A stretch of DNA of 64,000 nt from Candidatus Hydrothermota bacterium. Lineage in GTDB: Bacteria; Hydrothermota; Hydrothermia; B15-G9; DRBW01. The translations under genes were made by a program, and so were the position numbers. Below the pieces are notes generated by a model. It was not told the origin of the DNA. It did not search any database and worked only from the letters and a program-made list of their open reading frames with translations. Below, in pieces: positions 200-62,055 of the stretch. The stretch lies in assembly GCA_021158525.1 (NCBI GenBank), contig JAGGUL010000031.1, forward strand, positions 6,955-70,954, given 5' to 3'. Position 1 is the stretch's first letter, and each line of letters begins with the position of its first letter.

Positions 200-200
200 C

Positions 201-1270
<1,070 letters not shown>

Positions 1271-5152: not shown

Positions 5153-8100
5153 TCATCGGGACAAAATGCCTTCACACAGCTTACCCAGCCTGGAAAGAAG
5201 CTCCCAGGCTGGGATCTCGGAGAGGTCATCGGGAAGTCTCTCTATCCACTTCCTGAGCGACGATCGGGAGCTCTCCGATGCCACGTCCATCATCAAGCGT
5301 AATGCGAACTCTTCATCCCTTTCGGCGATGGCTCTGAGAGCCCAGACTCCGAAATCAACCACTTCCTCATCGCTCCTTGCATATCTCTCGACGGCATTCT
5401 TCAGTGAGGCCAGGAAATCCTCGCGGGCAGTCTCCCTGTCACCCTCCCTGCAGTAGATCTCGGAGATGGCTCTCAACATGAGAAGGGCCGGGTGATCGGG
5501 GTAGCTCTCCAGATAACGGATAACCTGCCCCCTGAGCTCGGCTGCGTCGTTCAGAGACCTGATTTTCCCGAAAAGGTCCCTGCACTTCTGAAATCCGACA
5601 TCGGGAGATGTTATTATATCCTCAAGGTCCTCTGTGAACTCCGTGGCCTCCAGATAGCGCAAAATGCGGTCCCGAATATCCCTGTCGGTGGGGCGACCCT
5701 CGCACAGGAGCAGCATCTCCTGCAACGCCCTCCTTCTGCTTCGCTCTATCACGTCGTATATGAAATTCAAAAGAAGCCCGATCACTCCCATGACAAAATC
5801 GACGTAGGGAAGATGTAGCAAGCTCCTGGCCTTCCCTTCCTCCACCTCCCTCCTCGAGTGAAGGTAGCTCTCTATATATTTGCCGTAGGTCTCGATTATC
5901 TTCTCCCTGTCGTACCCCGAGAGATAAACGGTGAAGATATTCCTTGAGTAATCGATGGTATAATCTGCCACGACGCCTATTAATAGCAGGCGGTGAAGCG
6001 CCTTCTCTATGGCAGGCCTCCTTTCTTCGTCGGCATGAAGGAGCTTCTTGCCTTCCATCGAAATATCCTCGAGCTCTCCGATTACCTTTCTGATCTCCTC
6101 CTTTTCGCTTTTTATACCCCTGAAAGATCTGGTGTGAAGATACAGCACTCTGGTTACGTCGTCATTATCGTCCCATTTCAGCTTCTCCAGCTGGCGCTGG
6201 ATCTCCTCAACGAGCGTATTGGGATCGAGAAGGAATCGGGACCTGCCCGGGTTATCCACGGAAACCATGATCGTGCAATAGGCCTTCTTTCTGTCCCTGC
6301 CCGCCCTGCCGGCCTCCTGATAGAATGCCTCTATGGAGGGCGGAAGGCCGTAATGTACGGTGAAGCGGATGTTTGGTTTATCGATTCCCATACCGAAGGC
6401 CTTTGTGCAAACGAGGAGCGGGATCTCGTTTCTCTTGAATTCCCTGAGCACCCTGCTCTTATAATCCCTGTATTCCTCTGGATCGCGCCCCTTCGGCTCC
6501 TTCCCGCTGTAGATGTCTGCGGGTATCCCGAGCTCCCTCCGAATGTAATCGGCTACCCCCTCTACGCCAAATTCACCGTTGACGTGCAGACAGAAAATAA
6601 GACCCGAATGGGTATCTTTGCCTCGCGGGACGTATAGTTCTTCCGTGCTCAAGCCGAAAAGGGAGGGCAGTTTCCTCATCAGGTAGTCCCTGAGAACCGC
6701 AGGCTTGGCCGCGGATTTCGAATGGATCACGGAGAATCTGAGCTCGGGCCTGTCGAAGGTTCTGGGAGTGATTATGGCCTCGAAATCCTCGATCCCGAGC
6801 TCCCTCTGGATGTCCTTGAGGACGGCGCGCGAGGCGGTCCCCGTCAGGGCGAGAAGGGGCGGCGTCTTCCTGAAAGACCGGCAGTACTCGCGGCTCGTCC
6901 TTCCTATGTTCAGATAGGCCGTCCTGAAATCATGCCCCCATTCGGAAACGCAGTGTGCCTCATCCACCACAATGAGGGCGATGGGCGTGTGTTCGGTCAG
7001 AGACCTGAGGGAATTCCTGAATTCCTGGGTCTGGAACCGCTCAGGAGCGACAAAGGCAAATATATACTCCCCTTTCCCAAAAAGAGAAAGAGCCCGCGCC
7101 CTGTGTTCGGGGCTCTCGAGCTGGCTTGTAATGACTATGCAGCGGCCTATCCCGGCCGCTGACAGGTTATCTATCTGATCTTCCATGAGCGAGATAATAG
7201 GGTCTATCACCACTGTCCTGCCCGGCAGCAACATGGAAGCAAGCTGGTACACCAGGGATTTCCCCGCTCCGGTGGGCAAAAGGAGCAGGGTGTCCCTGCC
7301 TGACATCGCCCTCTTTATCCCCTCAAACTGTCCCTCCCAGAAATCCTCCTTTCGGAAGAGGTAGCGCAGAAAATAGCGCAGGTCCTCGATCGACGGTTCT
7401 TCAAGGTCCCTGATCAGCGGAGAGACCGGAAAAGATCTATGGGCTATGTGAAATGGAAAGTAGGCATCGCCCAATTCTATCGTGGGAAGCCCGGGGTTAT
7501 CGCTGCCCGTGAAGGAAACGAATATCGCGTTTTCCGAGAGGGGGATCCTGCCTTCTTGTATGAGTTCCACCTTAACCTGCGGGATCGGCTCTCTCATTGA
7601 GTAGAAACTCAACAGCCTTGCAAATGTCTCCGCGAAGTCAAAAGCGGCCTCCTCGGCCAGAAAAATCGCCTCGTCGTCATCGAAGAGCCCTGTTCTGTGC
7701 AGATCGGTGTAGATCCTCCACTCCCTGTTTTCCCCAAGGGTCAAAAACCCCTCTGAGATCCCCAGGAAGAGGGCAAATTGCAGCTCGTGGGCAAACTTGA
7801 AGGAATAGGCAAGCCTCGCGAGACCCAGAGGAGGTCTCGATGTCCCCGAAAGCAGACCTCTGATCTCCCCGAGCAGGCCGTACTTCTCTGCAATATCATC
7901 GGCATCCATCTCCATCAGGTCCCGGGCTTTTATTCGAAGGACCTGGTAGCCAGCCCTGGCGAGATCATCATATTTTTTCTCCTCATCGATGGGGGTCCTG
8001 CCCTCTATCTCCACGGCCAGGGGATTCCAGATAAGGGGGTGGAAGAAAGCGAAGTCCACCCTCTGCAATTCCCTCACCCGCGTCGCTGTCTCCTCGTCTA

Positions 8101-8578
8101 TGAGGCTGGAAAGGGAAATTCCCGGAACTACGAACTGAACGAAGTTTCGGCCAAAAACGTAGGGACAAACCTCACCGTAAAAAATAGCTTCTTCAGTCCT
8201 GTCGAAATCCCCGGGATCTCCGCTTCTCTCGTAGCCGGAGAGAAAGGCCGAAAGATACGGATCAGCTTTCAGCTCTGTCCCATCTCCAAACCTCTCCAAA
8301 AGCTCCCCCTCAAGAGAGGGAGACAGAAGAGTGATCCTTCCGCGGGTCAGGATCTTCTCGAGAACCGACAGAACCTGTTTTGTCTTCTCGTCGAGAAAGG
8401 AACCTCCTCTGTCGGGATAATCGATCCGCCACTGGGCAAGGGCATTCAGAAGCCTCTCGTCGATCCCTCCTGCATTGAGGTACTCGAGGATCGTTGCGGG
8501 CACGGCTGCGCTCTCCACAAACCGAACCTTCTTATCCCTTCTCCTGCTCGAAGCCTTTATCGTTCTCGGAAAAAACAT
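5153..8578 (-). CDS. RecQ-family DEAD/DEAH-box helicase with an N-terminal Vsr/DUF559-like (PD-(D/E)XK) nuclease domain and a long C-terminal helical domain
   Basis: 1141 aa. Helicase motif I is LLLLPTGAGKSLVYQL, motif II is VVDEAHCVSEWGHDFR, and motif VI is EAGRAGRD, all of RecQ type. The N-terminus carries a DUF559-type signature (VDFAFF...LAVEIEGRTP...YDDLARAGYQVLRIKARDL). No RQC or HRDC signature is evident after the core. Confidence 0.7.
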   Translation of the reverse strand: MFFPRTIKASSRRRDKKVRFVESAAVPATILEYLNAGGIDERLLNALAQWRIDYPDRGGSFLDEKTKQVLSVLEKILTRGRITLLSPSLEGELLERFGDGTELKADPYLSAFLSGYERSGDPGDFDRTEEAIFYGEVCPYVFGRNFVQFVVPGISLSSLIDEETATRVRELQRVDFAFFHPLIWNPLAVEIEGRTPIDEEKKYDDLARAGYQVLRIKARDLMEMDADDIAEKYGLLGEIRGLLSGTSRPPLGLARLAYSFKFAHELQFALFLGISEGFLTLGENREWRIYTDLHRTGLFDDDEAIFLAEEAAFDFAETFARLLSFYSMREPIPQVKVELIQEGRIPLSENAIFVSFTGSDNPGLPTIELGDAYFPFHIAHRSFPVSPLIRDLEEPSIEDLRYFLRYLFRKEDFWEGQFEGIKRAMSGRDTLLLLPTGAGKSLVYQLASMLLPGRTVVIDPIISLMEDQIDNLSAAGIGRCIVITSQLESPEHRARALSLFGKGEYIFAFVAPERFQTQEFRNSLRSLTEHTPIALIVVDEAHCVSEWGHDFRTAYLNIGRTSREYCRSFRKTPPLLALTGTASRAVLKDIQRELGIEDFEAIITPRTFDRPELRFSVIHSKSAAKPAVLRDYLMRKLPSLFGLSTEELYVPRGKDTHSGLIFCLHVNGEFGVEGVADYIRRELGIPADIYSGKEPKGRDPEEYRDYKSRVLREFKRNEIPLLVCTKAFGMGIDKPNIRFTVHYGLPPSIEAFYQEAGRAGRDRKKAYCTIMVSVDNPGRSRFLLDPNTLVEEIQRQLEKLKWDDNDDVTRVLYLHTRSFRGIKSEKEEIRKVIGELEDISMEGKKLLHADEERRPAIEKALHRLLLIGVVADYTIDYSRNIFTVYLSGYDREKIIETYGKYIESYLHSRREVEEGKARSLLHLPYVDFVMGVIGLLLNFIYDVIERSRRRALQEMLLLCEGRPTDRDIRDRILRYLEATEFTEDLEDIITSPDVGFQKCRDLFGKIRSLNDAAELRGQVIRYLESYPDHPALLMLRAISEIYCREGDRETAREDFLASLKNAVERYARSDEEVVDFGVWALRAIAERDEEFALRLMMDVASESSRSSLRKWIERLPDDLSEIPAWELLSRLGKLCEGILSR

Positions 8579-8797: not shown

Positions 8798-10237
8798 ATG
8801 GAACTTCATCGGCTCCCCATACATGAGCTCCACGGCCTCCTCAGGAAAGGAGAGGTAAAGGTCTCCGAGATCCTCGAGGATGTCATAACCGTTATCGAAG
8901 AGAGGGAAAAGGAGATCAACGTCTATATCAGCCTCTTTCTCGAGGAGGCCCGGGAGAAGGCACTGGAACTGGATGAGAGGATCAACAGCGACATACACTA
9001 CCTCTTCGGAATCCCTGTCGCCGTGAAGGACAACATCGTCATGAATGTGGGTGAAACCACCTGCGCTTCCAGGATACTTCTGGGATACAAAGCCCCCTAT
9101 ACGGCGACAGCGGTGAAAAAGCTCACGGACAAAAACGCCATCATCACGGGGAAAACCAATCTCGATGAGTTCGCTATGGGCTCCACCGGTGAGTACTCTC
9201 ATTTCGGCCCCACCAGAAACCCCTTGGCACCCGAACGGGTGACCGGCGGTTCCTCAAGCGGTTCGGCTGCAGCCGTGGCTGCAGGGGAGGCGATAGCGGC
9301 CCTGGGCTCCGATACGGGGGGATCGGTCCGTCTGCCGGCTGCTTACACCGGCACTGTTGGCTTTAAACCTACCTACGGCCGTGTTTCCCGCTACGGCCTT
9401 GTAGCTTTTGCCTCTTCACTTGATCAGATCTCGGTCATAACCCGGGACGTGAAAGACGCTGCGATAATGTTCACGGCTATCTCCGGATTCGACCCCCACG
9501 ACTCCACCTCGGCGAAATTCGAGGTTCCTTCTTTCGATGAGATCTTCTCCCAATCCCCCAGGGGATTCAAAGTGGGACTTCCCTCCGAATATTTTGTCGA
9601 GGGAATAGAACCGGAGATAAGGGACAGGGTTCTCAAAGCTGCCGAACTGCTCGCACAAAACGGGTTCACCGTGAAGGAAATATCCATGCCCCACACGAAG
9701 TACGCCGTCGCGGTCTATTACCTGATAGCCACAAGCGAGGCTTCCTCGAATCTCGCCCGGTACGATGGTGTACGTTACGGCTTCAGAGCACCCGATGCCG
9801 ACGACCTCGATTCTCTCTATGAGCTGACCCGTACCGGCGGCTTCGGCGAGGAGGTCAAGCGAAGAATCTTGCTGGGCACCTTCGCCCTGTCGGCCGGCTA
9901 CTACGAGGCATACTACCTCAAAGCCCAAAAGGCCCGTCGCCTCATCAGGGAAGATTTCGACAGGGCCTTCGAGGATGTGGACCTGATTCTGGCGCCCACC
10001 CAGCCCGCTCCTCCACCCCTCATCGGAGAGAAGATAGAAGATCCACTTTCCGTTTATCTCCTCGACATCTACACTGTGACGGCAAACCTGGCTGGTCTGC
10101 CCGCCATATCCATACCCTGTGACAGGACGGAAGATGGATTACCTATCGGCCTTCAGTTCATAGGAAGGGCCTTTGATGAGAAAACCCTGCTCAGGGCGGC
10201 CGCCAGGGCGGAGTCTATTTTCGCTTTTCGTCCTTGA
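8798..10237 (+). CDS. gatA: Glutamyl-tRNA(Gln) amidotransferase subunit A
   Basis: 479 aa with the amidase signature (GGSSSGSAAAVAAGEAIAALGSDTGGSVRLPAAYTG) and a typical GatA N-terminus (HELHGLLRKGEVKVSEI). Confidence 0.85.
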   Translation: MELHRLPIHELHGLLRKGEVKVSEILEDVITVIEEREKEINVYISLFLEEAREKALELDERINSDIHYLFGIPVAVKDNIVMNVGETTCASRILLGYKAPYTATAVKKLTDKNAIITGKTNLDEFAMGSTGEYSHFGPTRNPLAPERVTGGSSSGSAAAVAAGEAIAALGSDTGGSVRLPAAYTGTVGFKPTYGRVSRYGLVAFASSLDQISVITRDVKDAAIMFTAISGFDPHDSTSAKFEVPSFDEIFSQSPRGFKVGLPSEYFVEGIEPEIRDRVLKAAELLAQNGFTVKEISMPHTKYAVAVYYLIATSEASSNLARYDGVRYGFRAPDADDLDSLYELTRTGGFGEEVKRRILLGTFALSAGYYEAYYLKAQKARRLIREDFDRAFEDVDLILAPTQPAPPPLIGEKIEDPLSVYLLDIYTVTANLAGLPAISIPCDRTEDGLPIGLQFIGRAFDEKTLLRAAARAESIFAFRP

Positions 10238-10667
10238 AAAGCTCCTTCTGGCACTCGGAGCAATAGCCATAAACGTTGAAGGAATACCTGCTTACCTTGA
10301 AATTTCTTTCCCTGGCTATTTCGTCCACGACCTTTTCTATGAGGTCGGACTTGAATTCCTCTATTTTCCCACATCTGAGACAGATCAGGTGATTGTGGGA
10401 CTCAAGTCCGAGAATGAACTCGTAAAATTTCTTACCCCTTCCAAAGTCATGCTCCTCGATTATGTGGTTCTCCACAAGAAGGTTGAGAGTCCTGTACACG
10501 GTGGCCCTGGATATCTGCACCCTGTCCTTCAAACTCTCGTAAATATCCTGGGCGCTGAAATGAGACCTCGTGGAAAATATCTTTTTTGCGAGGGCTTCCC
10601 TCTGCTTTGTGAACTTCAAGCCTTTCTCCTTCAGAATGTCCCGAAAAACTCTAAGTGCTGATCGCAT
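10215..10667 (-). CDS. fur: Fur-family transcriptional regulator
   Basis: 150 aa with a winged-helix N-terminus and metal-site motifs (HDHLICLRCGKIEEF ... CSEC). It is divergent from the GGDEF-STAND gene. Confidence 0.8.
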   Translation of the reverse strand: MRSALRVFRDILKEKGLKFTKQREALAKKIFSTRSHFSAQDIYESLKDRVQISRATVYRTLNLLVENHIIEEHDFGRGKKFYEFILGLESHNHLICLRCGKIEEFKSDLIEKVVDEIARERNFKVSRYSFNVYGYCSECQKELFKDEKRK

Positions 10668-10740
10668 AAGGGAAATTTAACATCACACCTTTTCCTTGTC
10701 AAGGGTTCGCGTATTAATTTAAAATAACATTCTAAACCAC

Positions 10741-13700
10741 ATGATGGACACAACTGGAAAATTCACGAGCGCTGCCCTGCTCGATGATCTGACGGGGCTC
10801 TATAACAGGAGGTACTTCTACCTGCGCCTCGATGAGGAGATAAAGAGGTCCAGCAGGTATGGAAGGCCCTTCTGCCTTCTCCTGATGGATCTCGATAACT
10901 TCAAGCTCATAAATGACTCCTTCGGGCACCTCAGGGGCGACAGGGTGCTGGCGGAGTTCGCGAGGCTACTCAGGGAATCCGTGAGGGAAACCGACATAGC
11001 CTGCCGCTATGGGGGCGACGAGTTCGCACTGATTCTCCCCGAGACCGACAGAAAATCCTCGCTGAAAGTTGCCAATAAAATAATGGAAGCACTGAAGAAA
11101 ACCTATTTCGGGGATGATATGCCCCTGAGACTGTCCATCTCTATCGGGATCTCCTCATATCCTGAAGACGGAAACACACCCGAAGAGCTCTTCAACGCGT
11201 CGGACCACGCTCTCTATTTTGCAAAAAGAGAAGGCGGGAACAGAGTAAAGTTCGTGGAGAAAAGAGAGATGCCCGCACAGGAGACGGGCCTGTATCTCTC
11301 GCCGAAGTTCACCGGAAGAGATGACGAACTGGAGTCCCTGAAAAAGTTCTTCGTCAAAGCCCTTCAGAGAAAGACAACAACGGTGGTGATATCGGGCGAG
11401 GCCGGCGTCGGAAAAACGCGCCTTGCCAGAGAATTCCTGAAAGTCGCGAGCCTCCTGGGTGCCGAGATTCTGAAGGGGAAATGCTACGATTTCACGAAGG
11501 ACATCCCCTATCAGCCCATCAAGGAGGCTCTCGCCACTTTTTCAGAGATAGATCCCCTCGAGATCTACAGCATCATCGAGGAGATGCCCGTTCTGATACG
11601 TTCTGAGGTGCTCAAGATTTTGCCTTTTCTTGACATAACCAGGCTGAAGCTCTCCTCGGAACAGATAAAAACGGGCAGAGAGCCCGACGACAAGTGGAGG
11701 CTCTTCGGAGGTATAAAGGAACTCTTCGAGGGGCTCGAGCGGAAGAGGCCTCTCGTCCTCTTCTTCGATGACATCCACTGGGCCGACGAGGCGAGCCTCG
11801 AGCTCATCTCATTCCTAGCACGAAGCATCGAAAACAAGAGGATTCTCTTCCTGCTCGCCTTCAGAGAGGGCGAGAGGGAGAAAAACCCTCTCAGGAGCTT
11901 CCTCAACAGCTTCACCAAGGAGAACAACTACCACGAGATTCACCTCACGAGGCTCAAGGAGGAAGATGTCTCCAGGATGCTCAAGAGCATCCTGGGATTC
12001 AACGCTCCCGCCGAGCTCGTGAATTATCTCTACACCGAAACCGAGGGCAATCCCTTCTTCATCGTGGAGTATGTCCGCAGGATGGCTGACGAGGGGACCA
12101 TCTCTGAGATCAAAAAGGGATCTTTCCAGGTCGAAACCATAAAGAAAACAATCCCTCCTGGCATCAAGGACATAATCCTGGCTCGTATAGCACCCTTACG
12201 AGACATAACCAAGAGGATCCTGAGGATAGCTTCCGTTATCGGCGAGGAAATAGATTTTAACGTCCTCCTGGCGGTCTCCGGGATAAACGAGGGGTTCCTC
12301 TTTGATGTGCTCGACGAGCTTTTAAAATTGAAAATACTCCGCGAGGACCTCAGACTCGGCACCGAGGTATATAGCTTTACCCACGGCAAAATTCGAGATG
12401 TCGTGTATGAGGATATGCCCCATTCCCTCAGAAAGACATTGCACAGGAAAATAGGAAATACCCTGGAAGAGATGAGCCCCGATGCCGAACAGATCGCGGA
12501 GGAGCTGGCGCACCACTTTCTGCAGGCCAGAGAAGAGGAGAAGGCACTGAAATACCTCATGATGTCAGCAAGAAAGGCGGAAAAACTTTACGCTTTCGAA
12601 AACGCTCTCTCTCACTATGAGAAAGCTCTCACCCTCATTCCTCCCTCAAGAAAGGAGCGCCTTGATATCTACATGAGCATGATTCCCCTGCTCCACGTCC
12701 TCGGCAAGAGGAAGAGGGAAAAGTTCATTCTGGAGAAGGCCTTTGCCCTCGCCGACGAGAAAGACGAGCGCTATCGCGAGTTGCTCAGGCACCGAATCAA
12801 GTACCTGATCTCCCTTTCCAGCTATCACGAAGCAAAAGAACTGTGCGAAAGCCTTCTCAACCTGGAAAAGCGCGCAGGAAAGAGCCCCGAGTACGCGGAG
12901 ACCCTCATGCTTCTCGGGAAGGTCCACTACCTTCAGGCTTACTACGACACAGCCCTGAAAGCTTTCGAGGAGGCCGCTGAGATATGGAAAGAGCTGGGAG
13001 ACAACTCGAGCTACGCAAAAACTTTAACACAGACAGCGAGGATACTGAACAAGCGCGGGCAATCGAGAAAATCCACAGAATACCTCAGCAGGGCCTTCGA
13101 GGTTCTCCAGAGGGCCGGGGACAGAAGAGGAATGGCCGAGATTTACTGCGAACAGGGCATTATTCACCTCGATCTGTCGGAGTTCGGGAAGTCCAGGGAG
13201 TTCTTCCAGAAAGCCCATGAACTTTACACTGAGGTCGGCGACAAGGAAGGAGAGGCAAGGGCCCTTCACCTTGAAGGCAATTCGATCCTGAGCGTTTCCG
13301 ATTACGAAGAAGCCCTCTCGAAGTTCGAGAGGGCTCTGGAGATAAGAAAAGCAATAGATGACAAGAGGGGCATGGCAGCGTCCCTCGCCAACATGGGACT
13401 CATATACCAGAGCACAGGGAACAACGAAAAGGCCATAGAGTATTACCGCTCTGCGGCTGCTATAGCGGAGGAGATCGGCGACAGGGATAGCCTGCAGGTG
13501 ATCCTCAACAACATGGGCACGATATACCTGGATGAGTCCAACCTCGGGGAAGCCCGAAAGAGCCTGAACAAGGCCCTCAAGATCGCCCGCGAGATCAAGG
13601 ACAGATCAATGGAATCCACAGTACTGATAAACCTGGGCAACATCGCCTGGCAAAAGGGGAAACTTGACGAGGCCGAAAAGGCTTTTCTCGATGCCCTCAA

Positions 13701-14493
13701 GGTCAAATCCGGCCTTCACGACAGGGAATCCGTGGGACTGATAAACACAAATCTTTCCATTCTCTATCTGGAAAAGGGCAAATTCAAAGAGAGCCTCTCC
13801 CGTATAAAGAGGTCTATAAAAATGCAGAAAGAAATAGGCAGCAAGAGCAGCTATGTAACGGCTCTCTTCACCTATTACCAGGTCCTGAAAGAAATGGGAA
13901 AATACAGGCTTGCCGCCAGCAAGGTGTCTGAGGCCTTGCGGATCTCGAAGGAAATAGGAGCTCTGGAGGAAGAAGCCCTCGGCTATATATTCGCCGCAGA
14001 GGCCAATCTCTACCTCGGGAACACCGATGTGACCAGGGAATACTTGCAGGAAGCCGAAAAGCATGCTGAGGCGCTGAAGAACCCCGTCATCCTCGTGTCG
14101 CTCTATGAGACAAAAAGTCACTTTTACCGGGAATTGAAGAGGACGGAGAGGGCGCTCAATGAGATCAAAAAGGCGTTCAAACTGGCGAGGAAATATGAGC
14201 TCGCCACCGACATCCCCTATATTCTGAAGTCGATGGCCGAGATCGAATACCTGGCCGGCGATAGGGAAAAGGCAAGCGTCCACCTGAAGAAATGCATGGA
14301 TCTATGCGAGAAGTTCGGGATGTACTACCTGCTGTTGAAATGTCTGGCTTTTGCCCAGGAAACCGATCTCTTCCCCGAGAAGGCAGAGGAAATCAGGAAC
14401 AAAATCGAATCATTGTCTGAAGATATTCTGAAAGGGCTCTCGGAGAAGGACAAGGAAAATATACTCCGCACAATGGTCCCCGCTACTCTTTGA
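10741..14493 (+). CDS. GGDEF diguanylate cyclase fused to a STAND (AAA_16-type) NTPase and TPR repeats
   Basis: 1250 aa. The N-terminal GGDEF domain has an intact RYGGDEFAL active site. Walker A is VVISGEAGVGKTRLAREF and Walker B is LVLFFDDIHWADEASLE. After that there are roughly 600 aa of TPR-like helical repeats. Confidence 0.8.
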   Translation: MMDTTGKFTSAALLDDLTGLYNRRYFYLRLDEEIKRSSRYGRPFCLLLMDLDNFKLINDSFGHLRGDRVLAEFARLLRESVRETDIACRYGGDEFALILPETDRKSSLKVANKIMEALKKTYFGDDMPLRLSISIGISSYPEDGNTPEELFNASDHALYFAKREGGNRVKFVEKREMPAQETGLYLSPKFTGRDDELESLKKFFVKALQRKTTTVVISGEAGVGKTRLAREFLKVASLLGAEILKGKCYDFTKDIPYQPIKEALATFSEIDPLEIYSIIEEMPVLIRSEVLKILPFLDITRLKLSSEQIKTGREPDDKWRLFGGIKELFEGLERKRPLVLFFDDIHWADEASLELISFLARSIENKRILFLLAFREGEREKNPLRSFLNSFTKENNYHEIHLTRLKEEDVSRMLKSILGFNAPAELVNYLYTETEGNPFFIVEYVRRMADEGTISEIKKGSFQVETIKKTIPPGIKDIILARIAPLRDITKRILRIASVIGEEIDFNVLLAVSGINEGFLFDVLDELLKLKILREDLRLGTEVYSFTHGKIRDVVYEDMPHSLRKTLHRKIGNTLEEMSPDAEQIAEELAHHFLQAREEEKALKYLMMSARKAEKLYAFENALSHYEKALTLIPPSRKERLDIYMSMIPLLHVLGKRKREKFILEKAFALADEKDERYRELLRHRIKYLISLSSYHEAKELCESLLNLEKRAGKSPEYAETLMLLGKVHYLQAYYDTALKAFEEAAEIWKELGDNSSYAKTLTQTARILNKRGQSRKSTEYLSRAFEVLQRAGDRRGMAEIYCEQGIIHLDLSEFGKSREFFQKAHELYTEVGDKEGEARALHLEGNSILSVSDYEEALSKFERALEIRKAIDDKRGMAASLANMGLIYQSTGNNEKAIEYYRSAAAIAEEIGDRDSLQVILNNMGTIYLDESNLGEARKSLNKALKIAREIKDRSMESTVLINLGNIAWQKGKLDEAEKAFLDALKVKSGLHDRESVGLINTNLSILYLEKGKFKESLSRIKRSIKMQKEIGSKSSYVTALFTYYQVLKEMGKYRLAASKVSEALRISKEIGALEEEALGYIFAAEANLYLGNTDVTREYLQEAEKHAEALKNPVILVSLYETKSHFYRELKRTERALNEIKKAFKLARKYELATDIPYILKSMAEIEYLAGDREKASVHLKKCMDLCEKFGMYYLLLKCLAFAQETDLFPEKAEEIRNKIESLSEDILKGLSEKDKENILRTMVPATL

Positions 14494-14551: not shown

Positions 14552-16228
14552 GTGGCATATATTTTGCATATCAGATCAGTGATGAGGGGCACCGATATTC
14601 ACCATAAGAGAGGATACCTGATGGCGATACTTATCGTGGCGGGTTCTCTCAACGCTGGGTTCAAGAGATTACCGGCGGATTTCCTGTTAAAGAAAAGGGG
14701 GTCAGGATTTAGCCAGCAGAAGGGAGAAGTCGCGCCTTTCGGGGGCTTTGGCTTCTTCGAGGCGCCGGAGAGAAATATGGCGGTGGGTTCTGGCGACGGA
14801 GAGCTCCTGGCGATCATCTTCAGCTCCCCATCGGGTGACACGCTCAATCCCCTCGGCGGAGTAGCGGTCGCTTACAGTACTGACGGAGGACATAGCTGGA
14901 CTAACCGCATTCTCTCGGATCATATGCTCTACAGAGCTTTCTCCGGGACATTCTGGGGCCCGGGCGGCGATCCCTGTTTCGCCTGGCAGGAAACCGCTCT
15001 CAGCGGGGACAGCCTCACTACGATTCTTTATTTCGCCGAGGATACCTCTTTCCCGGAGGGAAATCTCGCGATTCAGTCCCTGCCGGGGTCTGACATAACC
15101 GAGCCATGGATGCCATCCCTCTCAGTGAGGGATTCCGTCGTCCTGATCACAGCAGTTAACCTGACTGAAAACCGTTTTTCCTACATCTGGAGATCCATTG
15201 ACGGGGGCGCCTCCTTCATCATGGATACGCTCATGACCCCTGGAAACTATGGGGACCTCGGAAACTGGCAGGATCCACCCATAATAGCATTCGGGAGGGA
15301 TGGATTCGTAGCCTGCATCAACAACCTGAAGGTCCAATATGGCGATTACCAGGCAGTAACTCCCTTCTACACGGAATCTACCGATTGGGGTGAAACCTGG
15401 ACGGAGCCATTGAATCTCTGGGATGTAACCGGTGGAATTCCCTACGACTCGGCAGGGGGATGGTGGTATGGGTACAGCCTGGTGGTTGACACTGACAACA
15501 TTCCCCATGCTGTATGGAGATTCGCAAAGGGCGATAACGAATTCGGGGACATATGGGAATTCCACCCCACGGGAGGCGCTCCCGGAAACTGGTCCGGCTG
15601 GACCAGATCCCTGGTGGTAGGAGAGGGCGATGGAACGGAGACGGCAAGCTTCCCGCAGATATCCCTCGATCCGATAACAGACAACCTCGTTGTGACTTAT
15701 CTGAAGCTCGACGCGGCTTCACGCACGGATCCCCTGCTCTACTATGCCGTCTCCGAAGATGGGGCTCAGTGGTATGAAAGGGGACCGCTCAGTGTGGAGG
15801 CCCCCGTCTGGTTCGAGACCGGCATCGTCTCCCCCTATCTGCCTCTCATGGGACCTGTCGCAGAGGGAAATCTGGCTTATGTTTCTGCTGCCGGCGGATT
15901 GCTACATCACTCCTGGTACATCGATTACAGTCCAATGTCTGCGAAAGAGTTGGCGGGTATGCCGAGTCGTAATCAATTCAATGTTGAAATACTGGGAAAA
16001 GGGATCTTCGCCTTCTCTTTCAATCTAAAGGAGGCTGACTATATTGACATCATGCTTTATAATATAAGCGGTCGGTATGTGAGGACCCTGGGATCGGGGT
16101 TATTTGAAAGGGGCGTGCATAGACTCATCTGGGAAGGGGATTGCGGGATAAGTGCAGGAGTTTACATAGCGGTTCTCAGAGGTCGTAAAATCGGATTTAT
16201 ACCTTTGAAATTGATCCTCCCCCTATAG
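14552..16228 (+). CDS. Secreted BNR/Asp-box beta-propeller protein with a FlgD-Ig/T9SS-like C-terminal domain
   Basis: Asp-box motifs are STDGGHSWTN, SIDGGASF and STDWGETWTEP. The C-terminal ~80 aa (ILGKGIFAFSFNLKEADYIDIMLYNISGRYVRTLG...GVYIAVLRG) match the same sorting-domain pattern seen in two other proteins here. The true start is probably an internal Met that precedes the signal peptide. Confidence 0.6.
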   Translation: MAYILHIRSVMRGTDIHHKRGYLMAILIVAGSLNAGFKRLPADFLLKKRGSGFSQQKGEVAPFGGFGFFEAPERNMAVGSGDGELLAIIFSSPSGDTLNPLGGVAVAYSTDGGHSWTNRILSDHMLYRAFSGTFWGPGGDPCFAWQETALSGDSLTTILYFAEDTSFPEGNLAIQSLPGSDITEPWMPSLSVRDSVVLITAVNLTENRFSYIWRSIDGGASFIMDTLMTPGNYGDLGNWQDPPIIAFGRDGFVACINNLKVQYGDYQAVTPFYTESTDWGETWTEPLNLWDVTGGIPYDSAGGWWYGYSLVVDTDNIPHAVWRFAKGDNEFGDIWEFHPTGGAPGNWSGWTRSLVVGEGDGTETASFPQISLDPITDNLVVTYLKLDAASRTDPLLYYAVSEDGAQWYERGPLSVEAPVWFETGIVSPYLPLMGPVAEGNLAYVSAAGGLLHHSWYIDYSPMSAKELAGMPSRNQFNVEILGKGIFAFSFNLKEADYIDIMLYNISGRYVRTLGSGLFERGVHRLIWEGDCGISAGVYIAVLRGRKIGFIPLKLILPL

Positions 16229-17783: not shown

Positions 17784-18752
17784 TTAGGATACATTTACGT
17801 TTCTGGCCCACTCCCTGTTATCAAGATACCATTCTACTGCCTTTCTCACGCCTTCCTCAATGGGCACTTCCGGCGTCCATCCGAGAAGCACATGGGCCTT
17901 TCCTATATCGGCCATTGTTCTGGGGACATCGGCGGGATGGGGCGGGAAATACTCGATCCCGGCCTTCTTGCCGAGATATTCCTCTATGAGGCCGATCACG
18001 TAATTGAGCTTTACAGGCCTGTTGTTCCCGAGATTTACAACCTCGTATCCCAACGGCCTGAGGCCGGCGATCGTGCCCCTCGCTATGTCGTCCACATAGG
18101 TGAAATCCCTCTCCTGATTGCCGTCGCCGAAGACGGGTATGGGTTCTCCCTCTGCGATGAGCTTTATGAACTTGAATATGCTCATATCGGGACGCCCGGC
18201 CGGACCGTAGACGGTGAAGTACCTGAAAACCGTCACATCGATGCCGTAAAGGTGGTGATATGAAAAGGTCAATGCCTCGGCCCCCTTTTTCGAAGCCGCA
18301 TAGACCGACAACGGGGTGTCGGTTACCATCGACTCGCTGAAGGGAGGTGAATTAAGCCCATATATGCTTGAGGTCGAGGCCAGTACGAACTTCTTCACCC
18401 CGTGATCCTTCGAGAGCTCCAGGAGGTTCAGGGTGCCCACGGTGTTGGTCTCGACATAAACCCAGGGGTTCTTCACGCTCGCCCTCACCCCCGCGCGGGC
18501 GGCGAGGTTTATGACCGCATCGAACTTCTCCGTCTCGAAAATTTCCTTCATCGCCCGAAAATCCACTATGTCGGCCTTGAGGAAACGGAATCGGTTGAGT
18601 TCCCTCAATTTCGCGAGCCTCCATTCTTTAAGCTTCACGTCATAGGCATCGTTGAGGTTGTCGACACCGAGAACTTCGTCGCCCCTTTCTGCAAGCATCT
18701 CGGCCACTTTATGTCCGATAAATCCCGCTGCCCCTGTGAGTAAAACCCTCAT
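17784..18752 (-). CDS. NAD-dependent nucleotide-sugar epimerase (UDP-glucuronate/UDP-GlcNAc 4-epimerase-like)
   Basis: 322 aa with a Rossmann motif (LLTGAAGFIGHKV) and a YxxxK catalytic motif (YAASKKGAE) of the extended SDR family. It is the first gene of the polysaccharide locus. Confidence 0.75.
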   Translation of the reverse strand: MRVLLTGAAGFIGHKVAEMLAERGDEVLGVDNLNDAYDVKLKEWRLAKLRELNRFRFLKADIVDFRAMKEIFETEKFDAVINLAARAGVRASVKNPWVYVETNTVGTLNLLELSKDHGVKKFVLASTSSIYGLNSPPFSESMVTDTPLSVYAASKKGAEALTFSYHHLYGIDVTVFRYFTVYGPAGRPDMSIFKFIKLIAEGEPIPVFGDGNQERDFTYVDDIARGTIAGLRPLGYEVVNLGNNRPVKLNYVIGLIEEYLGKKAGIEYFPPHPADVPRTMADIGKAHVLLGWTPEVPIEEGVRKAVEWYLDNREWARNVNVS

Positions 18753-19393
18753 GTCTCGACTCCTTTATAGTTAATAACCTTGATATTTCTCTTTTTCCCT
18801 TTTCTCTCGACCTTGTAAGCTATGTCGGCTACTGAAAAAAGAGGAACATCTGAAGAATTATCACTAAATACTTCAATAAAGTAATTATCTCCATTTCCTA
18901 TAAGTCTATGTAGTCTCAGAACTTTAATTTTCCCTCTGCATTCCTCACCAATTTTCCCCGTGAAATATTCACCCCTAATCGTCGCATGTGTGCCAAGTAC
19001 CTCTGCTGATATACCCAGAAACTCGCAAAACTCTTCAACCACAAATGCAAAAGAAGCTGAATTTATTATAACTCTATTTCTTTCCTTTAGATTCTTGTAA
19101 AAAATTGATAGGATTTCGGGATCTACAAATGCAGAAAATTTCGTATGCCAAAATCGCGACGTTAGACGTTTCACTTGGTTTAATCTTCTGCCCCTTAAGA
19201 AAAAAAAAGCAAAAAGTTTTTTTAATGCAAATGTACTCAACAAATTTACCTTATACATAAGAAAGAAAAGCAAAAAGGGCAGTAGTAGATAATGACGCCA
19301 CATTCTCGTAGCAAAGAAGAAAACCAATGGCAAAAAACTATCTCTTTTTGTGATGGTTCCATCAAAATCAAAAACTATTAATTTGTCTTTCAA
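18749..19393 (-). CDS. HAD-superfamily hydrolase (subfamily IB-like) with a hydrophobic segment
   Basis: DxD motif LIVFDFDGTITKRD. The coding sequence is AT-rich, unlike its neighbours. Confidence 0.5.
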   Translation of the reverse strand: MKDKLIVFDFDGTITKRDSFLPLVFFFATRMWRHYLLLPFLLFFLMYKVNLLSTFALKKLFAFFFLRGRRLNQVKRLTSRFWHTKFSAFVDPEILSIFYKNLKERNRVIINSASFAFVVEEFCEFLGISAEVLGTHATIRGEYFTGKIGEECRGKIKVLRLHRLIGNGDNYFIEVFSDNSSDVPLFSVADIAYKVERKGKKRNIKVINYKGVET

Positions 19394-20601: not shown

Positions 20602-20636
20602 GTTTCCATCGCCTGATTATTTCCCTGTTTTCACAG

Positions 20637-27632: not shown

Positions 27633-27665
27633 CTGAAAACCGCCTTCGGGAGCAATGGTCTCGAA

Positions 27666-59445: not shown

Positions 59446-62055
59446 TTAAATCTTATCATATACAAGCTCCGGGGTTTTCGCCTCGCCCTTCTCGGACCAC
59501 CTGAATCCCTTCTCGAAGACCCTGAGGCAGGCTTTCACGACTTCGGGATCATAGAGGATTCCGCTGTATTTCTTGATCTCCTCCAGGGCCTTATCGATAC
59601 CCATGGCGGGCCTATAGGGCCTGTGAGATGCCATGGCCTCCACAACATCGGCCACCCCCAGTATCCTGGCTTCGAGCAATATCTCCTCTCCCTTCAATCC
59701 CCTGGGGTATCCGGAACCGTCGAGCCTCTCATGGTGCTGAAGCACTATATCTGCCACGGGGCCATCGAAGTCGATGTTCTTCAAAATATCATAGCCCACC
59801 ACGGGGTGTGTCTTTATTATGTTCGTCTCGGCCTCGGTGAGAGCGCTTGGCTTGCTCAGGATCTCCGCGGGTATGTGTATCTTGCCTATATCGTGTAGCA
59901 TTCCCGCTACATAGATGGTCCTGACCCTTTTCTTGTCGAGTCCCATCTCTCGGGCGATCGCAACCGCAAGCTCAGCCACCTTCATCTGGTGGCCGGCGGT
60001 ATAGGGATCCCGTGCCTCAACGATCCTCACCACCATCTTAACCACATCGTCCAGTGTTTTCCTCAACCTTTTGTAACTTTCTCTAAGCATTTTCTCGCCC
60101 TTCTTTCTCTCACTCACATCTCTTATTATGGCCAGTGCCTCCCACTCCTCTTCGATCTGAACGGTTGTAACTGAGATCTCAAGGGGAACCGTTGAGCCGT
60201 CTTTTCTGAGGCCTATCACTTCCATGGTTCTGTTGGTGTGGGGTTTGTTTTTCCCCTCGAACATTGCCCTGCGGAATGCCTTAAGGAACCTCTCTCTGTC
60301 CTTTTCCGGAACGATCAACCTGTGAATTTCCCTTCTCAGCGCCTCTTTCTCGGCATAGCCGAAAAGCCTCTCGGCCGCCCTGTTCCACATCTTGACACGA
60401 CCTCTCGAATCCACCCAAATGATCGCATCCGAAGCCGACCGAGTGAGAAGCCTGTATCTTCTCTCCGACAGCCTTATGCTCTGTATAAGCTGAAGGTTTT
60501 CCATGGCAGTCCCGATGCCCGCTGCCAGTATTTCCAGCAGTTTCAGGTCATCTTCATCGAAGGCTTTGAGCCGGGGAGACTCGGCATTTATGACGCCCAC
60601 CACCCTGTCTCTGATCTTTATGGGAACAGCGATCTCCGAAAGCATCCCCTTTATACCCTCCACATAGCGGGGGTCCTTCCTCGTATCATTAACTATGAGG
60701 GGCTTCCTGTGGTTGGCCACCCAGACCGTTATACCCTTTCCGTCAAGGGGCAACCTTATATTGGCATGAGTTCCCCTGATGCTCTTGACGTAAAGCTCTT
60801 TTCTCTCGTCATCAACGAAAAAAACGCTGGCGTTCTCCAGATGAATTATGCTTACTATGGCGTCCAGGGCTATCTCGACCAGCTCGTCGATGTCCTTGAG
60901 AACAGGCATCCTGGTGATAATCTCATAGAGGGCCGAAAGCTTCTTCTCCAGATTACTTTCCTTTGTCCGATCTTTCCCAAAACAGATAGCTCCCTTTACC
61001 TTCGATCCCTCCTTGAGGGGAACGGCCATAAAGGAAACTACCAGAATGCCGCCATCTCTCTTGAAGATCCTGGTCTCACGCCGGATCTTTTCACCCCTGA
61101 GCACCGCTCCGAAAATCTGACGGGCTTTATCGAGCTCTTCCGGCAGAAGAAGCGACGAGAACGGCTTCCCGATCCACTCTCTGAGTTTGTAACCCGTTAT
61201 CTCCAGGGCCTTCCTGTTGGCGAAGAGAATCCTGCCCCTATCGTCCAGGATCAAAATCAGATCGTTGGCGTTTTCCACCACTGTCCTGAATCTTTTCTCG
61301 GAAGACTTTATCTTCTCGAACATCCTGCGGCGCTCGGTGATGTCCAGGAGGGTTCCAAGAACGGCGGGTTTTCCCTTATAGAGAACGCGGGTGCCCAGGA
61401 ACTCAACTTCGATCACCTTTCCGTCCTTCCTCAGCCCGCGGAAAGAGTACCTCACCTGATCCACCTGTCCCTCGAGCCGTTTCTTTGTGTTTTCCACCAC
61501 AAGCTCGCGGTCTTCGGGATGGGTAAGATCCAGTGGTCCAAGCCTGCCGACGATCTCCTCCCGCCTGTAGCCGAAGATCGCAGCCAGGGTGGGGTTCACG
61601 TATCGGAATAGGCCGTCCTGAACGAGATAGACCCCTACAAGGGCATTTTCCGAGAGTATCCTGAAGAGATCTGACGCCTCATCCCCGTCGCTCCCTTCCT
61701 TCTCGCTTTTAGCCTCTCTCAGGGCACCACAATACAGGTCTTCGGCGTCAGAAATACCTTCGAGAAAGATGACAGCGAGCTCGGCTGGATTCCCTCTGAG
61801 CGCCACGCCGTCGACAACACATCTTCTCTTATTGCATCTTTTCAGCTCATCCAGTATCAGACGTAGGTCATCATCGCCGAAGTGCAGGACATCCGTGATC
61901 TTCCTGCCCTCGAGGGTGTCAAGCCCGGTCATCCCCGCAAAAACCCTGTTGGCCAGGAGAATCCTCCCCTCTTTATCCATGAGGAAAAGAGGTTCCTCGA
62001 GAAAATCAAAAAGGAGCCCCAGGCTTTTCAGGTCAATTGAAGTCCCCACTTTCAC
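59446..62055 (-). CDS. Multi-PAS/GAF sensor protein with a C-terminal HD-GYP c-di-GMP phosphodiesterase domain
   Basis: 869 aa with several PAS/GAF-like modules. The C-terminal HD-GYP region reads HQMKVAELAVAIA...MLHDIGKIHIP...HHERLDGSGYPRGL. Confidence 0.8.
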   Translation of the reverse strand: MKVGTSIDLKSLGLLFDFLEEPLFLMDKEGRILLANRVFAGMTGLDTLEGRKITDVLHFGDDDLRLILDELKRCNKRRCVVDGVALRGNPAELAVIFLEGISDAEDLYCGALREAKSEKEGSDGDEASDLFRILSENALVGVYLVQDGLFRYVNPTLAAIFGYRREEIVGRLGPLDLTHPEDRELVVENTKKRLEGQVDQVRYSFRGLRKDGKVIEVEFLGTRVLYKGKPAVLGTLLDITERRRMFEKIKSSEKRFRTVVENANDLILILDDRGRILFANRKALEITGYKLREWIGKPFSSLLLPEELDKARQIFGAVLRGEKIRRETRIFKRDGGILVVSFMAVPLKEGSKVKGAICFGKDRTKESNLEKKLSALYEIITRMPVLKDIDELVEIALDAIVSIIHLENASVFFVDDERKELYVKSIRGTHANIRLPLDGKGITVWVANHRKPLIVNDTRKDPRYVEGIKGMLSEIAVPIKIRDRVVGVINAESPRLKAFDEDDLKLLEILAAGIGTAMENLQLIQSIRLSERRYRLLTRSASDAIIWVDSRGRVKMWNRAAERLFGYAEKEALRREIHRLIVPEKDRERFLKAFRRAMFEGKNKPHTNRTMEVIGLRKDGSTVPLEISVTTVQIEEEWEALAIIRDVSERKKGEKMLRESYKRLRKTLDDVVKMVVRIVEARDPYTAGHQMKVAELAVAIAREMGLDKKRVRTIYVAGMLHDIGKIHIPAEILSKPSALTEAETNIIKTHPVVGYDILKNIDFDGPVADIVLQHHERLDGSGYPRGLKGEEILLEARILGVADVVEAMASHRPYRPAMGIDKALEEIKKYSGILYDPEVVKACLRVFEKGFRWSEKGEAKTPELVYDKI

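Follow-up and report, generated by a model that had tools for sequence, protein, structure and literature searches.

Results

The Gene and Its Neighborhood

The window analyzed here, 64,000 nucleotides of contig JAGGUL010000031.1 (assembly GCA_021158525.1) from a Candidatus Hydrothermota bacterium, carries an open reading frame that starts with ATG and encodes a 1250-residue protein (Table 1). The product is identical to MCD6086712.1 from Candidatus Hydrothermae, whose public label is merely "TPR protein," and orthologs of 1250 and 1247 residues start and end at the same positions. A canonical GGDEF domain is followed by a disordered linker, a STAND NTPase composed of NBD, HD, and WHD (the NOD), and ∼33 TPR-type helices that continue up to the C terminus. 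The initial annotation had given the reading frame and its length exactly, and the three motifs that it quoted, RYGGDEF (residues 89–95), GEAGVGKT (219–226), and LFFDDIHWADE (340–350), are present in the translation. The layout that it proposed, an effector followed by an NTPase switch and a repeat sensor, was borne out by Pfam matches to GGDEF, AAA_16, TPR_12, and TPR_MalT; NB-ARC (18.1 versus a cutoff of 23.5) and nSTAND3 (23.1 versus 27.2) stayed below their cutoffs. Because the full-length predicted structure has a pTM of 0.58, the arrangement of the domains relative to one another is unreliable in this model.

Table 1. Coordinates of the Features Discussed in the Text
Feature	Position (nt)	Strand	Basis
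GGDEF-STAND(NOD)-TPR protein, 1250 aa	10741..14493	+	ORF, domain matches, exact database match MCD6086712.1
GGDEF diguanylate cyclase domain (residues 11–172)	10771..11256	+	PF00990, TIGR00254, model superposition
I-site RxxD (R82-E-T-D85), presumed allosteric product-inhibition site	10984..10995	+	R82 and D85 in 36/36 family members
A-site R89-Y-G-G-D-E-F95, catalytic GGDEF motif	11005..11025	+	invariant save G91
Flexible linker between effector and NTPase (residues 173–189)	11257..11307	+	pLDDT, low ortholog identity
NBD of NOD (residues 190–380)	11308..11880	+	AAA_16 99.7 bits, column counts, strand order in models
Walker A G219-EAGVGK-T226	11395–11418	+	motif
Walker B VLFFD343-D344 (from V339)	11755–11772	+	motif
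HD and WHD of NOD (residues 381–558)	11881..12414	+	GxP motif, WHD His
GxP motif G436-N-P438 (HD)	12046–12054	+	invariant
WHD position F546-T-H548; His	12382–12384	+	present in query
Arm and TPR solenoid (residues 559–1250), putative ligand sensor	12415..14490	+	TPR_12, TPR_MalT, DSSP of full-length model, LGN/Pins and PH0952 structural matches
Sigma-70-like promoter candidate for cyclase gene, TTGTCA-N18-TAAAAT	10696..10725	+	consensus scan, 10/12 matches
Sigma-70-like promoter candidate for divergent fur, TTGACA-N17-TAAATT	10674..10702	−	consensus scan
Fur-family regulator, divergent neighbor	10215..10667	−	PF01475, E 2.3e-33
PAS x3-GAF-HD-GYP c-di-GMP phosphodiesterase (context only, not linked)	59446..62055	−	Pfam HD_5, PAS, GAF; motifs

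The gene context is of a housekeeping kind (gatA, divergent fur, glcD, and an exopolysaccharide [EPS] cluster) and is syntenic with that of an ortholog of 59% identity. The EPS cluster, of the Wzx/Wzy type, occupies 17.8–31.3 kb on the strand opposite to the cyclase gene, from which it is separated by two genes. A RecQ/DpdF/PsyrT-like helicase gene located 2.2 kb upstream is not kept at the orthologous locus. The only other c-di-GMP gene identified in the window encodes an HD-GYP protein with three PAS domains, one GAF domain, and HD_5 (E 3.6e-45), in which HD721, HHE774, and GYP782 are intact. The initial annotation had pointed to this gene; it is indeed present, but at a distance of ∼45 kb it does not count as evidence for a link between the two. 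The window holds no second GGDEF or NOD gene.

The divergent pairing with fur was confirmed and is kept among the Hydrothermae orthologs. Models of Fur and PerR score about equally on the neighboring product, both below their cutoffs. The promoter candidate of the cyclase gene, a consensus match only, ends 15 nt before the ATG, and its two hexamers are retained in the intergenic region of the 59% ortholog. Its −35 element overlaps that of the fur promoter candidate in a near-palindrome, CCTTGTCAAGG, and this block aligns with that of the same ortholog almost without differences. A Fur box was sought in the intergenic region, with a negative result.

An Intact GGDEF Domain

PF00990 matches residues 12–168 over its entire length (profile positions 1–161 of 161; E 2.7e-50; 170.7 bits versus a cutoff of 23.8), and TIGR00254 is likewise above its cutoff (183.5 versus 37.4 bits). 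Superposition of the modeled domain on solved structures of active cyclases gives 1.2–1.8 Å, and the best sequence matches in the PDB include PleD (E 6.8e-34). Conservation was counted in 36 relatives that are ∼29%–30% identical to the query. D50, D52, N58, D59, H63, G66, D67, and K162, which we map onto the metal- and substrate-binding residues of PleD, are invariant, as are R89, Y90, G92, D93, E94, and F95 of the A-site; the remaining A-site position, G91, is Gly in 27 and Ala in 9 members. The Asp at the GD position (D67) is presumably that of a c-di-GMP-specific enzyme as opposed to Hypr-type cGAMP enzymes. Five residues upstream of the GGDEF motif lies the RxxD sequence that we take, from established knowledge of PleD and WspR, to be the I-site. 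Degeneracy of the domain, which the initial annotation had considered, is not seen: both sites are complete and, G91 apart, do not vary among the family members. Judged by its sequence, the GGDEF domain is apparently a c-di-GMP synthase and is predicted to be active.

The strict conservation of the I-site, equal to that of the A-site, could also be read as that of a receptor, in which the GGDEF domain is mainly an input that senses GTP or c-di-GMP through either site and regulates a STAND hub, the real output being protein recruitment by the TPR array. GGDEF domains that serve as c-di-GMP or GTP sensors are known, for example in PelD and PopA. Such domains normally have degenerate A-sites, however, whereas here the catalytic and the metal- and substrate-binding residues do not vary among relatives of ∼29% identity, and the N-terminal slot of the nearest NOD relatives is taken by catalytic or DNA-binding output domains. 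A receptor role is thus improbable.

The STAND Module and the TPR Array

The linker is disordered in the full-length model (pLDDT <50 for residues 174–184) and is only 41% identical to that of the 59% ortholog. Beyond it, AAA_16 matches residues 189–370 with 99.7 bits (cutoff 32.6). The Walker A motif in the form G-E-x-G-x-G-K-[TS], W347, R375, and G436-N-P438 are invariant or nearly so in the 36 relatives; the sensor-1-like R375 is present in 35 of them and sits at a strand end in the model. The WHD histidine is more variable. H548 is shared by the query and 13 of the 36, and in 19 the Walker B motif reads D-N together with a Glu at the His position, the query having Walker B DD and H548. The equivalence of R375, GxP, and H548 to residues of Apaf-1 and AfsR is inferred from position. 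The NOD model (pLDDT 89) has the three-part NBD-HD-WHD fold and is matched in Foldseek by Apaf-1 (E 8e-10), MalT, and CED-4. The NTPase is therefore, as had been proposed, a true STAND NOD by its sequence motifs as well as by its fold. The Walker B D-N and Glu combination indicates that part of the family may not cycle ATP canonically.

DSSP of the full-length model yields ∼33 helices in the TPR solenoid, with a 40-residue repeat period from ∼695 to 1151. TPR_12 matches nine stretches (E 2.1e-65), TPR_MalT is matched too, and the best sequence matches of the array are 40-residue TPRs of the LGN/Pins type. A C-terminal HTH that might have been overlooked was sought by Pfam and in the full-length model: neither GerE nor any other HTH matched at E ≤ 0.1, TPR helices continue in the model as far as residue 1200, and nothing matches the final 50 residues. 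The TPR sensor evolves more rapidly than the remainder of the protein, being 46% identical between the query and the 59% ortholog as compared with 87% for GGDEF and 79% for the NBD.

Distribution and Relatives

The architecture proved to be common rather than rare: it is found in 119 of the best 120 database matches and in at least eight phyla. There are often several copies per genome, annotated just as "TPR protein"; tandem paralogs occur, with three copies in 17 kb in one instance. Genes for PAS-HD-GYP and GAF-GGDEF proteins and histidine kinases adjoin the relatives. That the architecture is uncharacterized, as the initial annotation stated, agrees with our literature search, in which no published characterization of a GGDEF-STAND-TPR protein was found.

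The NOD groups with the signaling STANDs of the MalT/PH0952/AfsR type. The best full-length structural match is PH0952 of Pyrococcus horikoshii, a MalT-clade STAND with a TPR sensor (PDB 6mfv, E 4e-14), and the top matches of the NOD include MalT and PAB2304/SSO1545. PH0952 and MalT (PDB 6mfv and 8bob) share the NBD-HD-WHD-arm-TPR layout, although the similarity of these chains to MCD6086712.1 was not detectable by sequence search. In TPR-sensor STANDs of this kind, an ADP-closed form that is autoinhibited by arm and sensor switches to an ATP-open form (PMC6468293). The effector of MalT is a C-terminal LuxR HTH, whereas that of MCD6086712.1 is an N-terminal GGDEF enzyme; in the absence of a LuxR/GerE HTH, a MalT/LAL regulator is ruled out.

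Among the 20 nearest NOD relatives without GGDEF, the effector is a class III cyclase in nine, a Ser/Thr kinase in five, and a SARP in five; these effectors are dimerization dependent or form side-by-side dimers. The class III cyclase-AAA_16-TPR proteins (M. tuberculosis Rv0386/Rv1358/Rv2488c type, with homologs in Leptospira and rhizobia; TIGR03903) combine an N-terminal cyclase that requires dimerization with a homologous AAA_16 NOD (26%–33% identical to that of MCD6086712.1) and TPRs. They produce cAMP or cGMP, in contrast to the predicted c-di-GMP of MCD6086712.1, which is also without their C-terminal LuxR domain. TIGR03903 (TOMM kinase/cyclase fusion) is the best NCBIfam match on residues 189–630 but scores 198.5 against a cutoff of 705.75, and PF00211 (Guanylate_cyc) does not match; only the NOD is homologous, and membership of this class is excluded. 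GGDEF and class III cyclase domains are described as having a common fold (Pei and Grishin, 2001, as cited in PMC7159879). The open-access papers examined on Rv0386 deal only with the cyclase domain and the infection phenotype and do not cover regulation by the NOD (PMC3466318).

AfsR, a large SARP of Streptomyces, has the same order with the effector first (SARP-NOD-arm-TPR). Its NOD and TPR inhibit the N-terminal effector, ATP binding relieves this inhibition, and ATP is bound in vitro without a change of oligomeric state (PMC10936776). A His-Asp motif in its NOD serves as an activation switch (10.64898/2026.09.02.748808); the corresponding pair in MCD6086712.1 would be H548-G549, the correspondence of H548 being one of position. 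The AfsR effector has no enzymatic role but binds DNA. Since the N terminus of MCD6086712.1 is GGDEF and not SARP (Trans_reg_C and BTAD), which occurs only in sister relatives, an AfsR-type large SARP is ruled out; the AfsR model of NCBIfam matches the TPR region alone, far below its cutoff.

Signaling versus Antiviral Defense

The initial annotation had likened the protein to Avs and NLR immune receptors, and the layout of effector, NOD, and repeats is indeed common to them. On that account the TPR array would sense a phage or foreign protein, and an Avs/NLR-like oligomerization would release a burst of c-di-GMP as a defense or alarm signal. Paralog expansion, as with the three copies in 17 kb, is also seen in immune receptor families, and the fast evolution of the sensor and the nearby helicase gene point the same way. 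Against it, the PADLOC profile search yielded, besides a generic TPR model, only three weak matches to unrelated models, with no Avs model among them, and the best structural and sequence kin of the NOD are signaling STANDs, so that of the two placements considered for the NTPase the MalT-like one holds and the Avs-like one does not. Instead of a defense island, the survey of homologs found a housekeeping neighborhood that is syntenic across genera; no defense genes were present in the six contexts examined, those of five relatives among them, the unconserved helicase apart. The fusion is absent from the plasmid records examined, in which the annotated matches are class III cyclase-AAA_16-TPR proteins, and phages gave a single weak match to the NOD only. 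The effector is GGDEF rather than one that kills the cell or degrades NAD or DNA, its invariant I-site limits cyclase output, and the HD-GYP protein shows that this organism already uses c-di-GMP as a housekeeping messenger. Membership of the Avs family is rejected, and a defense function is highly unlikely; the protein looks like one of ordinary signaling.

Discussion

Cyclases of the PleD/WspR/DgcZ type are controlled through the regulated pairing of their GGDEF domains. MCD6086712.1 has the canonical GGDEF and RxxD I-site in common with them, but where their pairing is driven by REC phosphorylation or other small sensor domains, the presumed driver here is a STAND oligomerization module with a TPR sensor of ∼690 residues. 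On balance, we favor a cytoplasmic sensory diguanylate cyclase gated by the STAND nucleotide switch, a reading that is somewhat better than an even bet. Taking the switch of PH0952 and MalT as the model, we infer the following course, from ligand gating and nucleotide exchange to GGDEF pairing induced by oligomerization and a downstream target. The resting protein would be a monomer. Binding of a cytoplasmic ligand (a small molecule, peptide, or protein) to the TPR sensor would release autoinhibition, ADP would be exchanged for ATP, and the NODs would assemble head to tail. The N-terminal GGDEF domains, on their flexible linkers of ∼15 residues, could then form the antiparallel dimer needed for c-di-GMP synthesis. 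ATP hydrolysis, for which Walker B D343-D344 is intact, would reset the switch, and c-di-GMP bound at the I-site would cap the output. The invariance of this site argues for feedback-limited signaling rather than the unrestrained burst that had been suggested. The product would enter the ordinary c-di-GMP network of the cell; from proximity and synteny only, the adjacent Wzx/Wzy exopolysaccharide cluster is a plausible target.

The unchanged oligomeric state of AfsR on ATP binding in vitro (PMC10936776) suggests that activation in this clade of STANDs may be conformational and not driven by assembly. It also fits a static scaffold, in which the NOD keeps the protein constitutively dimeric or oligomeric and the nucleotide serves as structural cofactor, the TPRs are a docking platform that localizes c-di-GMP synthesis to partners, and output is set mainly by expression, from the promoter region shared with fur, and by I-site feedback. 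The Walker B D-N and Glu substitutions in more than half of the sampled relatives suggest that much of the family can do without hydrolysis; LGN/Pins-type repeats, the best match of the array, are protein-docking scaffolds; and the overlapping −35 elements of the divergent promoters are conserved. The query, however, retains all canonical switch residues (Walker A, Walker B DD, R375, GxP, and H548), these are strongly conserved in its sub-clade, in which the NBD is 79% identical to that of the ortholog, and the search for a Fur box in the intergenic region was negative. We consider a static scaffold unlikely and retain the nucleotide-gated cyclase as the preferred reading.

A far-reaching version of the immune analogy extends to the expanded family in WOR-3, Hydrothermae, TA06, and Fermentibacteria. 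Its paralogs with fast-diverging TPR sensors might form an NLR-like receptor repertoire, each specific to an intracellular protein or peptide, possibly of phage or kin, and assembling into resistosome-like hubs whose burst of c-di-GMP would lead to a protected, matrix-embedded, or dormant state. This is very doubtful; if it held, STAND immunity or alarm would here take a non-lethal form that relies on a second messenger.

Central to c-di-GMP biology is the question of how GGDEF enzymes become activated, and to our knowledge the well-studied cases all involve small sensor domains such as REC, PAS, GAF, and CZB. The promiscuous fusion of STAND modules to dimerization-dependent effectors is well known, and to a specialist a GGDEF-STAND-TPR protein is logical rather than startling. 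A STAND NTPase as the gate of a diguanylate cyclase would extend the means of GGDEF pairing by one that depends on ATP, is cooperative, and potentially acts like a threshold, with the induced-proximity logic of apoptosomes and resistosomes and a reversible second messenger as its output. Uncultivated FCB-related phyla (WOR-3, Hydrothermae, TA06, and Fermentibacteria), whose signaling is almost unexplored, have the family in abundance. The cyclase-ATPase-TPR proteins of mycobacteria and Leptospira are its sister case and no better studied, and to them a mechanism established for the GGDEF-STAND-TPR proteins would probably apply as well.

Domain Organization and Predicted Structure

The open reading frame of the initial annotation was borne out and encodes a protein of 1250 aa, an identical sequence of which is already public under the name "TPR protein" (MCD6086712.1). 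The motifs RYGGDEF, GEAGVGKT, and LFFDDIHWADE, cited initially for the GGDEF domain and the STAND NTPase of a proposed fusion with a TPR array, were all found in the translation. Matches to NB-ARC and nSTAND3 in Pfam stayed under the cutoffs. The AlphaFold model of residues 1–1200 has a mean pLDDT of 86.6 and a pTM of 0.58, and a second model of residues 180–710 alone has a pLDDT of 89.1. No C-terminal HTH or other C-terminal domain was found, either by Pfam or in the model of residues 1–1200, and the helix-turn-helix that the initial annotation feared it had overlooked is therefore not seen.

Features of the cyclase protein and of the window. Identities are to the ortholog from a Hydrothermae relative that is 59% identical overall (59% ortholog).
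Feature	Position	Strand	Basis or content	Identity
Cyclase gene	10741–14493	+	1250 aa	
GGDEF, full-length	residues 12–168		Pfam, E 2.7e-50	87%
GGDEF domain in model	residues 11–172		Canonical fold	
Linker	residues 174–184		pLDDT <50	
AAA_16	residues 189–370		Pfam, 99.7 bits (cutoff 32.6)	
NOD (NBD, helical domain, winged helix)	residues ∼190–558		Model; β-hairpin wing at 533–546	
NBD				79%
HD-WHD				66%
Arm				57%
Helical solenoid	residue 561 to C terminus		Model; ∼33 helices; 40-residue period ∼695 to ∼1151	
TPR array, long			Pfam; TPR_12 in nine stretches plus TPR_MalT	46%
C-terminal tail				31%
V-type ATPase subunit I homolog	1271–3262	−		
Universal stress protein, tandem	3620–4522	−		
RecQ-family helicase	5153–8578	−	1141 aa; recQ_fam 268.8 bits, above cutoff	
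558-aa ORF	14552–16228	+		
Wzx/Wzy exopolysaccharide (or capsule) synthesis and export cluster, complete	17784–31329	−		
Ig-like/CHU_C protein	53135–59164	−	2009 aa	

Catalytic and Inhibitory Sites of the GGDEF Domain

An alignment of 36 family members, just ∼29% identical overall, was used to assess the integrity of the GGDEF domain. The A-site R-Y-[GA]-G-D-E-F and the I-site RxxD (R82 and D85) are kept in 36/36 members, and D50, D52, N58, D59, H63, G66, D67, and K162 are invariant. By comparison with PleD and WspR, these conserved residues are the metal, GTP, and product-inhibition positions; the Asp at D67 (the "GD" position) is the c-di-GMP-type residue, not the Hypr/cGAMP type. The modeled domain superposes at 1.2–1.8 Å on solved, active GGDEF domains. 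The domain is thus intact, as initially proposed, with none of the degeneracy at the A-site or I-site that would have spoken against catalysis, and judging from its residues the protein is very probably a competent cyclase. Full conservation of the A-site argues against the domain working as a receptor, which appears very unlikely.

Placement of the NTPase

Across the family alignment, Walker A and the G-N-P-F-F "GxP" motif are invariant, and the sensor-1-like Arg R375 is present in 35/36 members. Walker B in the query is D343-D344, and its winged helix bears an F-x-H motif (H548). Because the NTPase region by itself had no significant match among PDB sequences, fold comparison was required; STAND clades are inseparable by fold alone, and sequence relatives were therefore examined. 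In NCBIfam, residues 189–630 match the TOMM kinase/cyclase fusion family best, at a score far under its cutoff. Among 20 genomic loci encoding a NOD of 26%–33% identity without GGDEF, the N-terminal domain is a class III adenylate/guanylate cyclase in nine, a Ser/Thr kinase in five, and a SARP (BTAD plus Trans_reg_C) in five. A tblastn search of plasmids agrees, with adenylate/guanylate cyclase-domain proteins of Leptospira, Microvirga, and Cupriavidus among the matches, as well as Streptomyces LuxR-family regulators and AAA ATPases.

The Avs models of PADLOC do not match the query. Because of its cyclase-, kinase-, and SARP-fused kin and this lack of an Avs match, the NTPase is classified by sequence as an AAA_16 signaling STAND in the neighborhood of AfsR, PknK, Rv0386, and MalT, not as an antiviral Avs. 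In a neighbor-joining tree of NODs, which carries no support values and whose sampling is biased by the search pattern used for the genome scans, the main GGDEF clade lies apart from the one formed by cyclase-, kinase-, and SARP-fused NODs, and deep branches are seen for some GGDEF-fused proteins of other phyla.

Distribution and Divergence of the Family

The GGDEF-AAA_16-TPR architecture is common, widespread, and visible in databases. It was found, at 1000–1260 aa, in 119 of the best 120 database matches, which come from Hydrothermae, WOR-3, TA06, and Fermentibacteria (Aegiribacteria and Sabulitectum). Genome scans added GGDEF-NOD proteins in Gemmatimonadota, Planctomycetia, Bradymonadales, Aminicenantes, and Desulfobacteraceae and, with a weakly detected NOD, in Polyangiaceae. 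More than one copy occurs in several genomes, and several contigs carry two; family HMMs for GGDEF, NOD, and TPR detected no paralog in the window. On a WOR-3-type contig (GCA_975851905.1, 3310–17204 of the locus), three GGDEF-AAA_16-TPR paralogs lie within 17 kb, with T9SS-cargo genes (Por_Secre_tail) between them.

Two co-varying sub-types were observed. In 12/36 members, including the query, Walker B [DE]-D is paired with the WHD His; in 19/36, Walker B D-N is paired with Glu at the His position. This strong covariation of the Walker B residues (343–344) with position 548 suggests that members of the D-N/Glu sub-clade may bind ATP without hydrolyzing it canonically, hydrolysis being altered or lost. 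Identity to the 59% ortholog falls along the protein (see table), as is usual for STANDs, in which the engine is conserved and the sensor evolves faster.

Gene Neighborhood and the Question of Defense

The cyclase gene is flanked by the expected divergent fur-family gene and by a GlcD-like oxidase, with gatA upstream, and the 59% ortholog retains the order gatA, fur, cyclase, glcD, epimerase, and glycan genes. The 73 bp between fur and the cyclase gene hold two divergent sigma-70-like candidate promoters with overlapping −35 hexamers that form a near-palindrome, a block nearly invariant between the lineages of the query and the 59% ortholog. No Fur box (7-1-7 consensus, ≤3 mismatches) was found in the intergenic region, and four matches elsewhere are at chance level. 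Leaders are nearly absent at 10665–10741: the candidate fur −10 ends 6 nt before the annotated start codon, and that of the cyclase gene ends 15 nt before the ATG, which lacks an evident Shine-Dalgarno sequence. These spacings would mean either transcripts with short leaders or none, or a fur start 16 codons farther downstream, where it is called at the locus of a relative (L084, 134 aa).

The exopolysaccharide (EPS) cluster, partly syntenic at the locus of the 59% ortholog, encodes an epimerase, a HAD hydrolase, an ATP-grasp enzyme, glycosyltransferases (three GT4 and one GT2), a Wzx flippase, Wzz, and a Wza/SLBB exporter. As a target of c-di-GMP, it is a reasonable guess only. Within it, GC is 0.41–0.42 at 18001–22000 (HAD, ATP-grasp, and GT4 genes) versus 0.50–0.55 elsewhere, suggesting a glycan-variable segment subject to horizontal exchange. 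The 558-aa ORF begins 58 nt past the cyclase gene, and no terminator-like site separates the two; the ORF has no match in Pfam, NCBIfam, or PADLOC, and is kept in a closer, 92% identical relative, an unrelated 174-aa ORF taking its place in the 59% ortholog.

The distant PAS-GAF-HD-GYP phosphodiesterase noted initially is present, with HD, HHE, and GYP motifs intact. Its gene directly adjoins that of a protein in which numerous bacterial Ig-like domains accompany a CHU_C/T9SS sorting domain at the C terminus. Distant family members adjoin PAS-HD-GYP, GAF-GGDEF, PAS histidine kinase, or T9SS cargo genes, and others housekeeping genes such as clpC/mcsB, rapZ, and hprK; no defense genes were found in the contexts examined.

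The RecQ-family helicase is the sole defense-flavored neighbor in the window. Its core (residues ∼400–800) matches the PADLOC DpdF and PsyrT models strongly (E down to 5e-88), and ∼400 N-terminal and ∼340 C-terminal residues are without a family match. Upstream of it lie the genes for the V-type ATPase subunit I homolog and universal stress protein. A defense island was rejected because neither the protein nor its neighbors match an Avs model and the helicase, which matches DpdF and PsyrT through its RecQ core, has no counterpart at the locus of the 59% ortholog. Among the 5000 plasmid records with the best scores, none spans GGDEF and NOD together. In a phage collection, the NOD alone gave one weak match (23% identity, covering 91% of the query, E 4e-18), at 1794–2978 of MT837056.1, a 7.8-kb contig from human feces that is labeled "Bacteriophage sp." and carries no annotation.

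The Avs-like slant of the initial annotation was not supported, given signaling STANDs as kin of the NOD and a conserved housekeeping neighborhood. Paralog expansion and sensor divergence are the sole points that keep an Avs-like alarm alive; the NOD clade, gene context, and I-site all count against it, making it very improbable. Ordinary signaling rather than defense is highly likely.

A Proposed Model for Gated c-di-GMP Synthesis

GGDEF enzymes make c-di-GMP only upon pairing of two GTP-loaded domains. The AfsR-, cyclase-, and kinase-type sisters carry a SARP, class III cyclase, or kinase at the N-terminal position where the query has GGDEF, and these effectors also need pairing or act as side-by-side dimers. 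In STAND NODs, a ligand bound at the repeat sensor leads to exchange of ADP for ATP and to head-to-tail assembly (PMC6468293). The N-terminal effector of AfsR is inhibited by the NOD and TPR until relieved by ATP binding (PMC10936776), with the His-Asp motif of the WHD as the switch (bioRxiv 10.64898/2026.09.02.748808). By analogy, the GGDEF domains, each on a flexible linker N-terminal to the NOD module, would be paired by ligand- and ATP-gated assembly; hydrolysis of ATP would return the switch to rest, with the I-site setting a ceiling on the output.

Assembly-gated pairing is, we infer, the most economical model. Control of the cyclase by the NOD is probable, and the scheme as a whole is somewhat favored. 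The D-N/Glu sub-clade and the unchanged oligomeric state of AfsR would fit a NOD and TPR that serve as a static scaffold or for docking, a role that is nevertheless unlikely.

The components are all known already, as is the STAND logic of the whole, and the cyclase-ATPase-TPR analog entered catalogs two decades ago (PMC2447327, PMC3466318). No paper describing or testing a GGDEF-STAND/AAA_16/NB-ARC/P-loop-TPR architecture was found in the open-access literature; a 2026 STAND survey does not mention the fusion (PMC13581612), and a tangential mention describes GGDEF domains as rare in vWA-MoxR conflict systems (PMC7159879). The protein would not surprise a specialist, and it offers a good, testable model for oligomerization-gated c-di-GMP synthesis.
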